This document shows positions 1-5,900 of a DNA stretch of 35,148 nt, piece after piece. The notes beneath the pieces were generated by a model that saw only the letters and a program-made list of their open reading frames with translations, was not told the origin of the DNA and did no database searches. The stretch is from a virus (lineage: Duplodnaviria > Heunggongvirae > Uroviricota > Caudoviricetes). The stretch is taken from the IMG/VR virus record IMGVR_UViG_2718218452_000003; one strand, given 5' to 3'. Position 1 is the stretch's first letter. Each line of letters begins with the position of its first letter. Made by a program: the position numbers and the translations under genes.

Positions 1-141
1 TTACTGCTTACACTGTAAGAACGCCGCAAACTCCGCTCCCCAGAAGCTCATCCGTATTTCGCACAGCGAACCGTGCAGCATCCAGATGATGAGGATTGCC
101 GTCACGCAGAACGTGATGGCCGTAAGCGATTTTTGCGACAT
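1..141 (-). CDS. hok: Hok/Gef-family type I toxin peptide (46 aa)
   Basis: Reverse-strand ORF from ATG (141..139) to TAA (3..1) translates to MSQKSLTAITFCVTAILIIWMLHGSLCEIRMSFWGAEFAAFLQCKQ. It has one N-terminal hydrophobic helix and the SLCEIR signature of Hok/Gef toxins. AGGAG lies 8 nt upstream of the ATG. The 8..271 ORF overlaps it out of frame, a Mok-like arrangement. Too short to appear in the supplied ORF track. Confidence 0.6.
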   Translation of the reverse strand: MSQKSLTAITFCVTAILIIWMLHGSLCEIRMSFWGAEFAAFLQCKQ

Positions 142-331
142 AGCACTTGCTCCTTTTCAGGAGAGGCGCTAACCTTTCACTTGTCAAGGTAATGCGGTTA
201 GGGCCTCGGTTAAACAGAGATGTTTTCCGGGGCCTTTCCACATCTGGCCTTCGGGTATTCCCTCCGACCATCAGCCGAAAGGCACCCGCGCGTAATCTAT
301 CGCTTTTTTGTTACTCCGGCAATTCTGCTCG

Positions 332-592
332 TTAATTCTGAGATAAGGGCAAACTCATCTGATTGTTCCCCCTGTGTGAAGCTGGCAGAGCCTGCCACGG
401 TATGTCTTCTGAAGAATGAACTTCTGAGGTGTGTTTTGATGTGAACTTATGAAAAGCTTCCAGTGTTGAGAAGCATACGCCGCATTCCAGGTTATTACAC
501 TGGTAATACTTTTGCCGCACGGTGTTTGAGTCATTTTCCGGACGACTGGTGCGGATACGGGCAGACGCGCCACAAAGTGGACAACGGAACAT
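332..592 (-). CDS. ogr: Ogr/Delta-family zinc-finger late-gene transcription activator
   Basis: N-terminus MFRCPLCG...YQCNNLECGVCF gives a C-x2-C-x22-C-x4-C zinc finger typical of P2 Ogr. GGAGG RBS precedes the ATG at 592. Sits beside gpD as in P2. Confidence 0.8.
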   Translation of the reverse strand: MFRCPLCGASARIRTSRPENDSNTVRQKYYQCNNLECGVCFSTLEAFHKFTSKHTSEVHSSEDIPWQALPASHRGNNQMSLPLSQN

Positions 593-1016: not shown

Positions 1017-2429
1017 ATGAGTATTCAACATATAAAAGTTGGCAGTATATCAGAAATTATTGATCTATCATCTAATTCTGGCGAGCATGCTGATTCTCAT
1101 CCTTTTATCCTCTCGAAGAACTGTGTATGGGGAGAACAGGGGGCAGAAATATCAATTGAGAAATTGCGCCAAAATATTGAGCCCTGGCTAACAGCTCTCT
1201 TCCAATCAGAGCATTTAAATTTATTAATCGGTGCAGGCTTAAGCTCGGCTATTCAAAAATCAGCTACAGGTTTATCTCCAGTAGGGATGGGGTGGATTAA
1301 TGATTTAAAAGTATGTAAAAGCGAAATAGATGAATTTTCCACTCAGGCTGCAAAAGCTGCAGGTCGCGACAGAGGAAATATAGAAGACCAAATTAGAACT
1401 ATCAATGAACTTATTAAAGGTCTCGAAATTTTAACGGTGTTAAATACTCCTCAACCAGAAAATCCGCCACCTCCTTATTCTGCTTATAGAAACTTAAAAG
1501 CAGACTTGGGCGAGCTCAAAGGCGAGCTTTCTAGATGCTTGGGGGAGTTTTCTAAATCTATAATTAAAGGAGAATATTTAATCAAAACTGCTGAACCAGC
1601 CCGGAAAGAGGAAACTTTCAACTATCTAGTTAGTTTTTTGATGAGCTTTGCAAGTAGAACTGCCACTCGCGATAGGCTACATATCTTTACAACAAATTAT
1701 GACCGTATTATTGAAGTGGGTGCTGAGCTTGCTGGTTTAAGACTTATTGATCGCTTTGTAGGAAGTATTGCTCCAGTATTTCGATCCTCAAGATTAGAAG
1801 TTGATTATCATTATAATCCTCCTGGAATCCGTGGTGAACCAAGATACTTGGAGGGCGTGGCACGTTTTACTAAACTTCATGGTTCCCTTGATTGGCATGA
1901 ACAAAATAATGCGATTAGGCGCTTTGGCTTACCCTTTGGAGCACGTTCTGTTGAGCCGTTTTTGGAAGCCGAAGGTCATCAAAGCAATGGCTATGAAAAA
2001 CTGATGATTTACCCTAATTCAGTAAAAGACAGAGAAACAGCCGAGTATCCTTATGTTGAGCTATTTCGAGATCTGGCAGCAGCAACTAGCCGTCCAAATA
2101 GCACATTAGTCACTTATGGTTATAGCTTTGGTGATGAGCATATCAATAGAGTAATTGAAGACATGCTTACGGTACCTTCCACTCATATAGTAATAATAGC
2201 CTTTGGCGATCCACTTGGCAGAATTATGCGTTTCATTAGTAATAGTGGAAGAAAAGCACAGATCACCCTTTTAATGGGAGATCATTTAGGAGACTTCAAA
2301 ACTTTAGTTGATAACTATTTACCTAAACCAGCTATTGATAAAGCATCAATCAAGATGGCAGAGTTGCTCAAACAAAGAGGCTTTATGCAGTTCAAAGAGT
2401 TAGGTAATTCAGCCGAAGTTGAGGTATGA
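1017..2429 (+). CDS. SIR2-family (sirtuin-like) NAD-binding protein, putative NADase effector of a SIR2-HerA defence module
   Basis: Translation carries GAGLS (DNA 1230..1244), TTNYD (1689..1703) and KLHGS with the catalytic-type His (codon 1878..1880). Start chosen at ATG 1017; the track ORF begins at TTG 957. Stop overlaps the downstream gene start. Low GC compared with the phage backbone. Confidence 0.75.
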   Translation: MSIQHIKVGSISEIIDLSSNSGEHADSHPFILSKNCVWGEQGAEISIEKLRQNIEPWLTALFQSEHLNLLIGAGLSSAIQKSATGLSPVGMGWINDLKVCKSEIDEFSTQAAKAAGRDRGNIEDQIRTINELIKGLEILTVLNTPQPENPPPPYSAYRNLKADLGELKGELSRCLGEFSKSIIKGEYLIKTAEPARKEETFNYLVSFLMSFASRTATRDRLHIFTTNYDRIIEVGAELAGLRLIDRFVGSIAPVFRSSRLEVDYHYNPPGIRGEPRYLEGVARFTKLHGSLDWHEQNNAIRRFGLPFGARSVEPFLEAEGHQSNGYEKLMIYPNSVKDRETAEYPYVELFRDLAAATSRPNSTLVTYGYSFGDEHINRVIEDMLTVPSTHIVIIAFGDPLGRIMRFISNSGRKAQITLLMGDHLGDFKTLVDNYLPKPAIDKASIKMAELLKQRGFMQFKELGNSAEVEV

Positions 2430-2431
2430 CA

Positions 2432-4465
2432 ATGAGTTATTTACCAATAGAAAAAATAGAACAACTAAGAATTGGAACTGTTGAGTTTGTATCACCTAAT
2501 GAAATTAGGGTGTCTTTAGAGATTGATTCTCCTGATTCAGTATCACTTCAAGGTGGGGCGCCTCGTAATTTTCCTAGAATAAATAGTTATATTTTAATCC
2601 GTAGTGATGACGGGTTTCTTGTTGGGCAAGTTGAGTGGATTGCAATAGAAAACTCGCCATATCCCAAAAGAAGAGGCTTACAAGATTTTGGGTTGATAGA
2701 CCTTCCTTTCCCACTTAAAAAGCTCAGTATCAATCCAGTTGGTACATTGAGAGTTGATAGAAAAAACGAAGGTTTCAGGTTCACGAGAGGAACTGATGCT
2801 TTCCCTTCGGTTGGTGACTCTGTGCTTTTGCCTACTGACCGACAATTACAATCAATAATTGAATCAGGTGATAATAGAAGGGTAAAAATAGGGGATAGCC
2901 CCCTAGCTAACAATGCTGAAATAAAAGTAGACCCCGATAGACTTTTCGGACGACATATAGCTGTTTTAGGTAATACGGGTAGTGGTAAATCATGTTCGGT
3001 GGCCGGCTTAATTCAATGGTCTCTTGATGCTGTTTTACAACAGGGAAAATCTCCAAATGCTCGATTTATAATACTTGATCCGAACGGAGAATATAGTAGA
3101 GCTTTAGGGCCAGAATCAAGATATAAGGGTAAACTATTACGTGTAGAGGCTAACATCGATGTCGGAGAGATGGATCTTAAAGTACCTTCATGGTTATGGA
3201 ATAGTTCTGAGTGGGCTGCTTTCACTCAAGCAAGTTCAAAGGTGCAACTTCCTTTACTACGTCGTGCTTTGAGGGCAATGAGGAATAATCTTCTATCAGA
3301 AGATGATGTGAAAATTCAAGCCAAACGCTTTTGCGGTATCCTTCTTGTATCTATGAGACAGCAGGCAAGTCAAGGTCAGATATATGTGAATAGTGGATCT
3401 GCTAAAGGTTTGGTTGAAACTTTGGGTTCTTGGAGAGATAGTATTTCTATCTTAAACGAGAGAATTGTTGATAAATCGCTCGATAAGCTAATAAACACAA
3501 TAAATACGTATCTTTCTTCACGAAGTGGATCTTCTTGGCCAGCAAAGCCTGTTGTTTCCGAGATTGAGTTGTTGATTAATGGATTTAGAGATGCATATAC
3601 AGCTCTAGGGGGAGATGAACAAGAACTTCTTCCAAAAAGCGAAGATGCGCCTATGCGTTTTAAAGGCGATGATTTTGTCGCATATCTCGAAGCTCTGGCT
3701 CAAGAAACAGGTACAGAACAATTCGTGGAGTTTCTTTTGACTCGTATTCGAACAATGCTAGGTGACACTCGTATTAGTGCAGTAACCAATGATTCTGTAA
3801 AGCCTATAAGTTTAACTAATTGGTTAGACACTTTTCTCGGTAAAAATGAACAAGGATCTATAACTGTTATAGATTTATCTCTAGTACCAAATGAAATAAT
3901 TCATTTGGTAACAGCTGTAATTTCTAGGGTGGCTTTTGAAGCACTACAACGTTATCGAAGATTAAATGGAAGGCCGCTACCAACAGTTTTAGTTGCAGAA
4001 GAAGCGCATACGTTTATTAAACGTTACAAGGAAGATAGTGAAACTCAGTCAGTCTCTGATATATGTTGCAAGGTGTTTGAAAAGATTGCACGGGAAGGAA
4101 GAAAGTTTGGGCTAGGCCTTGTTGTTTCTTCCCAAAGGCCATCAGAGCTATCTCCGACGGTTTTATCTCAATGTAATACTTTTTTGTTGCACAGGATTAG
4201 TAATGATAGAGATCAAGAGCAAGTACATAGACTTGTTCCAGATAATATGAGAGGGCTGTTGAGAGAGCTGCCATCGTTACCATCTAGGCATGCTATTTTA
4301 CTTGGATGGGCTTCAGAACTTCCTGTTTTAGTTAGAATGAAAGAGCTTACTGAAAAACAACGACCGCAATCTGATGATCCTGATTTTTGGGATGTGTGGT
4401 CTGGCACTACAAAAGAACCTCGGAAAGTTAATTGGCAACAGATAGCTGATGATTGGCAAAGTTGA
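2432..4465 (+). CDS. HerA/FtsK-like P-loop ATPase, partner of the SIR2 protein
   Basis: Walker A VLGNTGSGKS (DNA 2969..2992), Walker B-like LVAEEAHTF and an SQRPSE motif, with an N-terminal barrel-like region. GAGG lies 8 nt upstream of ATG 2432; an alternative ATG at 2426 overlaps the SIR2 stop, suggesting translational coupling. Confidence 0.75.
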   Translation: MSYLPIEKIEQLRIGTVEFVSPNEIRVSLEIDSPDSVSLQGGAPRNFPRINSYILIRSDDGFLVGQVEWIAIENSPYPKRRGLQDFGLIDLPFPLKKLSINPVGTLRVDRKNEGFRFTRGTDAFPSVGDSVLLPTDRQLQSIIESGDNRRVKIGDSPLANNAEIKVDPDRLFGRHIAVLGNTGSGKSCSVAGLIQWSLDAVLQQGKSPNARFIILDPNGEYSRALGPESRYKGKLLRVEANIDVGEMDLKVPSWLWNSSEWAAFTQASSKVQLPLLRRALRAMRNNLLSEDDVKIQAKRFCGILLVSMRQQASQGQIYVNSGSAKGLVETLGSWRDSISILNERIVDKSLDKLINTINTYLSSRSGSSWPAKPVVSEIELLINGFRDAYTALGGDEQELLPKSEDAPMRFKGDDFVAYLEALAQETGTEQFVEFLLTRIRTMLGDTRISAVTNDSVKPISLTNWLDTFLGKNEQGSITVIDLSLVPNEIIHLVTAVISRVAFEALQRYRRLNGRPLPTVLVAEEAHTFIKRYKEDSETQSVSDICCKVFEKIAREGRKFGLGLVVSSQRPSELSPTVLSQCNTFLLHRISNDRDQEQVHRLVPDNMRGLLRELPSLPSRHAILLGWASELPVLVRMKELTEKQRPQSDDPDFWDVWSGTTKEPRKVNWQQIADDWQS

Positions 4466-4633: not shown

Positions 4634-5743
4634 TCAAGCTGTTTCTGCTATCCATTCCGGGATTTTTGCCTCAAGTTCAAGCTGCGTGGTAAAGCCGCTG
4701 TTATCAATGGTGTGCTCGGCTTTTGCAATAATCCAGTCCTGATTATCAATCTCGCTTTTAAATCCTGTTACCGTGCCATGCATTTCGGGGTAGAGTTCTG
4801 CTCGTCCACGTGCCAGCGTGATGGAGAATGATGCGGCTCCGCGTTGTAGTTGTTGCCACTTTGCCGCCGCTGCGCGTCTTGCTGCCTGCTCGTTCTGATA
4901 AGTCTTGCGTAACACAAACACATTGCCTTCCGCGCCTTCCATATAATCACCTTCACGGCTGCTGCTTTTCTCTTTTTTCGGTTTTGGCGGTTTGCGGCGT
5001 TTCACGCTGACTTTTTTCTTTTTCCCGTAATTAAGATCAAGCCAGTAAGCGCGTACCCCCGTATACGACTCGCGGTCAGCAATGCGGAACTGATGGCGAT
5101 CGCCGCTGCTGCGTGTGATGGCGAACGATGGCAACGGCTGGCCCTGTGCGTTCACGCCACCGCCGGGCATGATGAATAACAGATTACCGCTTTTTACTGT
5201 GGTGATTGCGCCCAGCATTTCCGCCATGCGCGTAAGGAAGGACATGTCACTTTCTTCGGTCTGGTCGGCGTGGTCGATTTCGATATCCATCAGCATTTCG
5301 CTGATTTGCGGTTTCAGACCGTACCGATGAGCGATGGCGGATACCACACGCTCAACGGTCACATCATGCCAGGACACCTCACGTTTAACGTTAAATTCAT
5401 CCCGAAAATCTGCGCTTCTGGCTGAAACAGTCAGCCTGTCCGGCGGTCCTTCGTGTGCGATTTCATCAACAATGTAAGTGCCTTTTTCTGTCAGCGGTTC
5501 GCCTTTCCAGCCAATGAGAACCGTCAGGCGCGCGCCCCGTGGCGCTAGCTGCAACTGACCATCCGCATCATCCAGCGTGATGGTGAGCTGGTCCGCCTCA
5601 AATCCCCGGTTGTCGGTCAGTGACAGGGTCATCAGGCGCTCTGCCACGCCTGACAGCGTTTTACCCTCCGCGAGAATATCAAAATCCGGCATTTTCACGG
5701 GGTCTGTGCCCTGACTGAGCAATTGCATGGTGGTATCGGTCAT
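4634..5743 (-). CDS. D: Tail protein D (late control gene D, baseplate hub-like)
   Basis: 370 aa from ATG 5743, with GGGAGGGA upstream. Includes a lysine-rich linker and a C-terminal ...TQLELE region typical of P2 gpD. The track ORF is extended upstream to 5875. Confidence 0.85.
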   Translation of the reverse strand: MTDTTMQLLSQGTDPVKMPDFDILAEGKTLSGVAERLMTLSLTDNRGFEADQLTITLDDADGQLQLAPRGARLTVLIGWKGEPLTEKGTYIVDEIAHEGPPDRLTVSARSADFRDEFNVKREVSWHDVTVERVVSAIAHRYGLKPQISEMLMDIEIDHADQTEESDMSFLTRMAEMLGAITTVKSGNLLFIMPGGGVNAQGQPLPSFAITRSSGDRHQFRIADRESYTGVRAYWLDLNYGKKKKVSVKRRKPPKPKKEKSSSREGDYMEGAEGNVFVLRKTYQNEQAARRAAAAKWQQLQRGAASFSITLARGRAELYPEMHGTVTGFKSEIDNQDWIIAKAEHTIDNSGFTTQLELEAKIPEWIAETA

Positions 5744-5900
5744 CTGTTCCCTCCCTGTGTGGCATGGTCGCATGTGCGTGCGGAGGGGGTTACTGCTTTT
5801 TGTTGTCGCCGGGTCGGGAGAACGGCGCAGGGGTGAGATTACGCGCGTGGTGGGTGATGATTGTTGCCGAATCATTTAACGGATACAAGGGGCTGAAGCT

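Follow-up and report, generated by a model that had tools for sequence, protein, structure and literature searches.

A hok-like toxin gene beside ogr

The DNA analysed here is a 35,148-nt stretch of a tailed-phage genome (hereafter the window), which begins exactly at the stop codon of a short minus-strand gene lying next to the 3' end of an ogr/delta-type gene. The 3' untranslated region (UTR) of the short gene is therefore outside the window, and we read it from strain C7 (locus L001; L001 coordinate = window + 6000). The features found or predicted at this end are:

1..141, minus strand: hok-like toxin gene, 46 aa, ATG at 141 and stop at 3..1 (ORF list, Pfam, PHROG)
155..150, minus strand: hok Shine-Dalgarno sequence AAGGAG, 8 nt upstream of the ATG at 141 (read from the sequence)
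8..271, minus strand: 87-codon ORF overlapping hok, not supported as a gene (ORF list)
287..128, minus strand: hok mRNA 5' leader, with the predicted +1 near 287 (Rfam RF01794)
287..277, minus strand: tac-like 5' end of the leader, GGGUGCCUUUC
239..229, minus strand: ucb-like box of the leader, GGAAAGGCCCC
about 240..183, minus strand: Sok-target region of the leader
322..294, minus strand: predicted hok promoter, -35 TTGCCG (322..317), 17-nt spacer, -10 TAGATT (299..294) (read from the sequence)
147..175, plus strand: predicted promoter of a Sok-like RNA, -35 TTGCTC (147-152), 17-nt spacer, -10 TAACCT (170-175) (read from the sequence)
181..240, plus strand: predicted Sok-like antisense RNA of about 55-60 nt starting near 181-183, with a single-stranded 5' tail at about 181-199 (~18 nt), a hairpin at 200-236 and then UUU (folding and comparison)
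332..592, minus strand: ogr/delta-type late activator gene, stop at 334..332 (PF04606 Ogr_Delta, 52.6 bits; RefSeq annotation)
L001 5993..5968, outside the window: post-stop hairpin
L001 5943..5935, outside the window, 58 nt after the hok stop: fbi box AAGGCACCC, a perfect complement of mRNA nt 1-9
L001 5914..5887 plus a T-run, outside the window: hok terminator

The 46-codon ORF at 1..141 encodes MSQKSLTAITFCVTAILIIWMLHGSLCEIRMSFWGAEFAAFLQCKQ (from the ORF list). By its sequence this is a Hok/Gef toxin, a call far beyond chance. A first-pass annotation had seen in it the Hok/Gef hydrophobic helix and the SLCEIR signature, and profile searches bear this out: PF01848 (HOK_GEF) scored 29.9 bits against a gathering cutoff of 22 (E 4.1e-7), aligning over profile positions 5-42 of 42, and PHROG 251 aligned with the protein end to end (E 1.3e-22). 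An identical protein is held in RefSeq as WP_000078916.1, labelled 'Hok/Gef family protein'. The length (46 aa, against about 50 aa in the family), the N-terminal hydrophobic helix (LTAITFCVTAILIIWML) and the conserved residues are all those of a Hok/Gef protein. The family logo places the conserved Hok residues at M1, C16, T18, L30, C31, E32 and E41 (bioRxiv 10.1101/2025.08.07.668861); by inspection, all seven residues conserved in >80% of Hok are present in the toxin, as M1, C12, T14, L26, C27, E28 and E37. Its SLCEIR motif exactly matches that of R1-type Hok. Alignment to individual family members, the check proposed in the first-pass annotation, gave 43% identity to K-12 HokA and 39% identity over 31 aa to R1-type Hok. 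HokA (NF007290) was also the best NCBIfam match, but its 34 bits fall far under the equivalog cutoff of 89, ruling out identity as a HokA equivalog. None of the PADLOC models matched the toxin, and we found no solved structures for it.

The ribosome-binding site had been called good, and it is: AAGGAG stands at 8-nt spacing from the ATG and is kept across a 14-sequence alignment of homologues. Substitutions among the relatives are mostly synonymous in the hok frame. The hok of STEC316, for example, differs from that of the window at seven nucleotides, all seven of them synonymous in the hok frame and 6-7 non-synonymous in the other frames, and loci with 8-12% nucleotide difference still encode an identical Hok protein. 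Judged by these substitution patterns, purifying selection at the locus is confined to the hok frame.

The predicted hok transcript and its folding

We placed promoters by comparison with relatives and with an R1-type locus, not with a consensus scanner. A consensus promoter scan listed neither the hok promoter, which is under its strict threshold, nor the Sok-like one; both are weak, each matching the consensus at 4/6 positions in either hexamer. The hok -10 hexamer lies 7 nt ahead of the predicted mRNA 5' end at 287, where homology to the family also starts. A TTGnnn-17-TAnAnT arrangement is found at an unchanged position in relatives with unrelated spacers, the hexamers being TTGCCC/TAAATT in a Stx phage, TTGCGG/TACATT in KY177 and TTGAAA/TAGAAT in STEC316.

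The leader (287..128) matched Rfam family RF01794 over the full model (1-157) with 50.2 bits (E 4.8e-10), under the gathering score of 59; an R1-type leader, used as a control, scored 87.2 bits. Although this family is named 'sok antitoxin', its model matches the hok-sense strand, from the mRNA 5' end to the hok ATG (128..287, minus strand, in the window; 232..403, plus strand, in the R1-type locus L018). A match to RF01794 hence marks the hok leader, and not the strand of the antisense RNA. The 5' end of the leader is invariant in 13 of the 14 homologues.

The predicted hok mRNA is about 410 nt long, running from its 5' end near 287 to a terminator that lies some 90-120 nt past the left edge of the window; fbi box and terminator together occupy the stretch ~57-120 nt from that edge. 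Folded at its full length of 410 nt, it gave a minimum free energy (MFE) of -180 kcal/mol (z -7.9), with nt 1-15 base-paired to the fbi region whether the MFE or the centroid fold is considered. In this predicted full-length fold, the partner of GGGUGCCUU (nt 1-9) is AAGGCACCC, which lies outside the window at nt 345-353. When the 3' end was truncated (nt 1-338), nt 1-11 instead re-paired with nt 49-59 (GGAAAGGCCCC), a predicted switch of the tac-ucb type. Folding of the leader had been suggested as a way to find the tac, ucb and fbi elements. The elements of the predicted tac-ucb-like switch lie in the leader; fbi was found outside the window, past its left edge.

When we transferred this structure to 14 homologues of 74-100% DNA identity, drawn from prophages, plasmids and islands, 85.5% of cells were paired, compared with 36-45% in slid controls. 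Compensatory changes affected 25 pairs; the post-stop hairpin stood out in this respect, as did a long-range helix joining the Sok-target region to the 3' UTR. In tac-fbi helices 1-2, 89-95% of cells were paired across the 14 homologues, with one-sided changes only. As the tac-fbi helix is nearly invariant, this end-pairing helix can contribute little or no covariation.

A predicted Sok-like antisense RNA

A Sok-like antisense RNA had been expected on the plus strand within 142..331, with the reservation that it could not be pinned from sequence. At the level of sequence the expectation is borne out and the reservation proved too cautious, since a predicted unit can be placed there (promoter at 147-175, hairpin at 200-236) by its kept promoter hexamers and its stronger plus-strand hairpin. 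The hexamers are retained in 12 of 13 relatives, where the -10 is mostly TAACCT (TACCCT in IncI1, TAATCT in N63), and the -35 TTGCTC overlaps the hok Shine-Dalgarno sequence. The predicted RNA is complementary to leader nt 50-105.

The hairpin segment folds better on the plus strand (-21.5 kcal/mol, z -4.1) than on the hok strand (-14.2 kcal/mol, z -2.2), and wherever the plus strand has a G.U wobble, the hok strand has a C.A mismatch. Run on the Sok strand, RNAalifold recovered the lower stem with no double-sided covariation; MAFFT cannot align the two variants of the upper stem, for which we used single-sequence folds. In the second variant (the Ecol542, Stx and 08-00022 variants), the upper stem AAACA/UGUUU is swapped for GUUAAC/GUUGAC, which pairs on the plus strand only. 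The 5' tail of the predicted RNA is the most variable stretch of the locus. Because of the stronger plus-strand fold, the swapped stem that pairs on that strand only and the variable tail, these comparisons indicate that, at the antisense hairpin, it is the plus-strand RNA whose structure is selected. The variable tail would also fit copy-specific recognition, given that genomes hold up to nine copies of this hok lineage.

The overlapping frame and mok

The frame at 8..271 had been described as overlapping hok out of frame in an arrangement like that of mok. The ORF is there, but it is not conserved as mok. Its AUG falls within the tac stem, at a distance of 17 nt from the mRNA 5' end, and has no Shine-Dalgarno sequence; Pfam and PHROG searches with its product gave no match. 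Stop codons close this frame in most relatives (P88 and 500465-2, which are 94-96% identical, as well as STEC316, IncI1, Stx phages and others), and substitutions in it are mostly non-synonymous. On the frames and starts in 13 homologues, the substitution pattern and the lack of a family match, we dropped this ORF as a conserved mok, and the long overlapping frame should not carry a mok annotation.

Only the part of this frame that begins at AUU (193..191) or UUG (187..185) sits where mok starts in R1. The position of the R1 mok ATG is occupied in this lineage by GCAUUACC, which offers at best AUU. From the AUU or UUG, inside the Sok target, the frame of the window is open to 7 nt before the hok stop, and a mok start at AUU or, in the window, at UUG is conceivable on sequence. 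Eight of the 13 relatives have no ATG-, GTG- or TTG-initiated upstream ORF of >14 codons that reads into hok. Given the stops in most relatives, Mok-coupled control is not established in this hok lineage.

The layout is also variable closer to the paradigm. In the R1-type locus of pMTY1886_IncFII (L018 344..403), the mok ATG stands 57 nt upstream of the hok ATG, in frame and with no stop between, which would make Mok there a version of Hok with an extended N-terminus. Even close relatives of the R1 paradigm thus differ in the mok frame, and a recent survey of Hok also states that mok cannot be called reliably.

Position in the prophage

The ogr stop lies 9 nt ahead of the hok -35 hexamer, and we found no terminator between the ogr stop and the hok promoter (293..331). 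Transcription of ogr could hence read into hok, giving 5'-extended hok transcripts.

The first-pass annotation had left undecided whether the locus was host flank or cargo, and had proposed comparing the flanks with an empty att site. This comparison argues for cargo and against host flank. Over positions 1-1000 the window matches several complete E. coli chromosomes at 100% identity; in one of them, that of strain C7, the order is pheT, ihfA, 304 nt, hok, ogr, SIR2, HerA, gene D, tail sheath and so on to int, a 131-aa ORF and btuC. The att core is the ihfA terminator: a 25-nt repeat, GGCCGCTCTGCGGCCTTTTTT(A/C)TTT, flanks the element, its two copies being identical at 24/25 positions. The copies lie at:

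L001 5714..5738: att repeat, 262-286 nt left of the window
L005, just upstream of btuC: second att repeat

Homology to the ihfA-btuC region of K-12 stops and resumes exactly at these repeats, resuming after int and the 131-aa ORF. K-12 itself represents the empty site, with ihfA and btuC 100 nt apart and no hok between them. The repeats and the empty site place hok inside the prophage, between ogr and att, and from this mapping the locus is prophage cargo, the host-flank reading being ruled out. Integration at the ihfA terminator hairpin regenerates a terminator for ihfA.

The hok gene lies between the att sites, has a predicted promoter and terminator of its own, and travels with ogr in phage records, as a moron does. 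The module also occurs at flk, serS and raiA, so that its linkage to ogr is seen at four insertion sites in all; these further sites are used, instead of the ihfA terminator, by close relatives of the phage.

Other cargo surrounds it. A two-gene anti-phage defence system, SIR2-HerA (PADLOC: SIR2 E 2.5e-155, HerA E 1.9e-252), occupies 1017..4465 on the plus strand, between ogr and gene D (4634..5875), and homology to related P2-like phages ends at about 633-684. In P88 ogr is directly beside D, and in 500465-2 the gap holds a different 1-kb gene, so the space between ogr and D acts as a slot for variable cargo. At the other end, a 131-aa hypothetical ORF lies between int and att, past the right edge of the window (C7 record 3795768..3796163; L005 2769..3164). 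With this ORF beside int and hok beside ogr, small cargo genes are found on both sides of attP.

The window extends from the hok stop to the int stop and includes neither att copy. Over this distance it measures 35,148 nt, against 35,414 nt in C7 (NZ_CP010240.1), although the first 1000 nt are identical. Either there is a 266-nt indel relative to C7 somewhere in the prophage, or the window stems from another 100%-matching strain.

Distribution

Using a 361-nt probe spanning hok-ogr and a coverage of >=80%, we found the junction in 1185 of 5426 complete E. coli genomes, or about a fifth. It is also present in deposited records of P2-like phages (P88, P884B11, PhiR44_2 and Chuche, at 92-95% identity), and the P88 genome that carries it is circular. 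This hok lineage as a whole reaches up to 9 copies per genome and roughly 3000 copies in complete E. coli genomes, its carriers being P2-like and lambdoid prophages, IncI1 plasmids and islands. Two decayed copies were seen. One, in SCU-115 (L011 1501..1879, near zapB), is unannotated and has its start ATG changed to ATA; the other, on an E. albertii IncF plasmid (L015 1501..1785), has an internal deletion and a premature stop. Enrichment of Hok in prophages has already been described, with 9.3% of Escherichia phages in IMG/VR carrying hok. Our literature searches for hok in P2-like phages found nothing specific.

A probable hok/sok-type module and its alternatives

The proposal of a Hok/Gef type I toxin locus adjoining the 3' end of ogr has held up against protein-family, RNA-family, RNA-folding and comparative evidence. 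We consider it very likely, from the sequence comparisons above, that a P2-like (Peduoviridae) prophage in the ihfA terminator carries here, at its ogr-proximal end, a self-contained moron in the form of a hok/sok-type type I toxin-antitoxin module. The module is a system of a known kind and already catalogued: the exact protein is annotated in RefSeq, PHROGs label the locus too, the recent Hok survey covers it, and the module occurs in deposited phages.

Two other readings deny the prophage a working module of its own. One is that hok belongs to the host chromosome and simply adjoins the end of the prophage. In its favour, the locus occupies the extreme edge of the window, beyond ogr, the last phage gene that can be recognised, and E. 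coli chromosomes do carry hok loci. However, homology to K-12 already breaks off at the att core, 262 nt left of the window, and does not return until past int and the 131-aa ORF; K-12 has no hok in the 100 nt from ihfA to btuC; and the hok-ogr linkage persists at other insertion sites and in phage records, including circular P88. We give this reading hardly any weight. It is also improbable, though less so, that the locus has become an inactive relic, still recognisable as a descendant of hok/sok but making no toxin, and is passively carried by the prophage. The missing conserved mok start would be expected of a relic, as would two promoters with only 4/6 + 4/6 matches, and decay does occur in the lineage (ATG to ATA in SCU-115, the internal deletion on the E. 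albertii plasmid); in the literature, the chromosomal hok loci of K-12 are reported to be mostly inactive. Yet at this locus the ORF, Shine-Dalgarno sequence, both promoters, tac, fbi and terminator are all intact. A relic is also hard to reconcile with the synonymous bias in the hok frame among relatives of 74-99% DNA identity over the locus, with a toxin protein that stays identical despite 8-12% nucleotide difference, with RNA helices that stay paired via compensatory changes, or with the retention of the module in 1185/5426 genomes and in deposited P2-like phage records.

A third possibility accepts the module and concerns only how it is controlled. Perhaps it works without mok, with Sok controlling hok directly (through RNase III cleavage or leader refolding) or via a non-canonical or very short leader ORF. 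We regard this as possible, though less likely than not, coupling to mok being the established mechanism of the family (PMC8621323). It is favoured by the 8/13 relatives that lack an ATG/GTG/TTG ORF of >14 codons upstream reading into hok, by GCAUUACC (at best AUU) at the position of the R1 mok ATG, by hok's own strong AAGGAG at 8-nt spacing, by a mok frame that varies relative to hok even in the R1 type (in frame, 57 nt upstream, in pMTY1886), and by the difficulty of calling mok acknowledged in the Hok survey. On the other hand, non-canonical starts are conceivable on sequence, and with the frame of the window open from the AUU or UUG in the Sok target to 7 nt before the hok stop, a Mok-like ORF could exist. 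Slightly more tentative is the wider suggestion that this HokA-like lineage as such is regulated without a Mok leader peptide, Sok acting on a hok that has its own strong Shine-Dalgarno sequence; the route may be leader refolding plus RNase III cleavage, or a non-canonical or very short leader ORF.

Proposed mechanism and role

Returning to the hok/sok-type module, the sigma-70-type promoter at 322..294 would give a hok mRNA of ~410 nt with its 5' end paired to the 3' fbi box, and the opposite-strand promoter overlapping the hok Shine-Dalgarno sequence would give a Sok-like RNA of ~55-60 nt directed against leader nt 50-105. The further steps are modelled on the R1 paradigm, in which the full-length mRNA is inert, 3' trimming opens its leader, RNase III cleaves the duplex with Sok, Sok is unstable and the toxin depolarises the membrane (summarised in PMC8621323). 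By analogy, the closed full-length mRNA would be stable, untranslated and unbound by Sok. Slow 3' trimming would then remove fbi, allowing the 5' end to re-pair with the ucb-like box and the leader to open to Sok. As long as Sok binds the open leader, RNase III would cleave the duplex and no toxin would be made. Once the short-lived Sok is depleted, the open leader would be translated, and the 46-aa Hok would enter the inner membrane and collapse the membrane potential. Such depletion might be brought about by loss of the prophage, by an infecting phage that shuts off host transcription, or by induction.

The module might serve to retain the prophage, to abort infection and/or to assist lysis. 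Faster lysis after induction, as with hokW-sokW of Sp5, is plausible. In P2-like phages the module might be read through from ogr, since no terminator separates the two, and so be tied to late-gene expression and the timing of lysis. Beyond the correct annotation of what is a routine type I toxin-antitoxin moron, the importance of the locus is slight. What modest interest it has lies in how Sok is coupled to hok without a conserved mok, and in which of these roles it plays for a P2-like phage.

Comparison with known systems

The best-known relatives are hok/sok (parB) of plasmid R1 and the R1-type loci of IncF plasmids, which share most of the layout. As in the window, the toxin has ~50 aa, one transmembrane helix and SLCEIR, and the leader matches RF01794, though in the window under the gathering score. 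The R1-type antisense promoter, TTGCGC-17-TATCCT, has its -35 over the hok Shine-Dalgarno sequence, just as TTGCTC-17-TAACCT does here, and an antisense hairpin lies opposite the leader in both. Both also have a post-stop hairpin, an fbi box 58 nt after the stop that pairs with the extreme 5' end, and then a terminator. The sequences are nevertheless distant: the toxins share only 39% identity over 31 aa, and a pairwise DNA alignment of the window with the R1-type locus was too diverged to inform. The toxin of the window has 46 aa and ends in LQCKQ (with Cys44), whereas R1 Hok has 52 aa and ends in AYESGK. Its leader is ~23 nt shorter, with the hok AUG at nt 147 and not nt 170 as in R1, and unlike R1 it has no AUG at the mok position. 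The R1 locus is on a plasmid, and that of the window on a prophage.

The closest characterised Hok subfamily is that of K-12 hokA/sokA, with 43% identity to the toxin over its full length; M-x-QK, W-M, SLCE and AAFL-x-CK motifs are found in both. K-12 hokA is chromosomal and disrupted by IS150, in contrast to the prophage-borne hok of the window.

Another prophage-borne locus with its own promoters is hokW-sokW of the Stx2 prophage Sp5 / 933W. There, Sok vanishes on induction, and Hok then speeds lysis and doubles phage release (Takada et al. 2021, PMC8621323); the difference in RNA stability and the RNase III cleavage of the duplex were shown in that system (PMC8621323). HokW is, however, another Hok. 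The cloning primers in PMC8621323 encode a 51-aa peptide of the Gef/HokD type that starts with MKQQKAM and ends with YESEK, ruling out identity of the gene at 1..141 with the characterised hokW of Sp5. The label 'MokW-like host killing' attached to this lineage hence reflects a PHROG family name, not orthology. Stx phages also carry a copy of the window's own lineage, located beside lom, with 80-82% DNA identity.

Most similar of all are the loci of the Peduoviridae P88 (NC_026014), P884B11, PhiR44_2, Chuche and 500465-2, with 91-95% DNA identity over hok and ogr. Order and orientation are as in the window, and Hok is identical or differs by one residue. The cargo across ogr differs (SIR2-HerA in the window, none in P88, another gene in 500465-2), as does the integration site.
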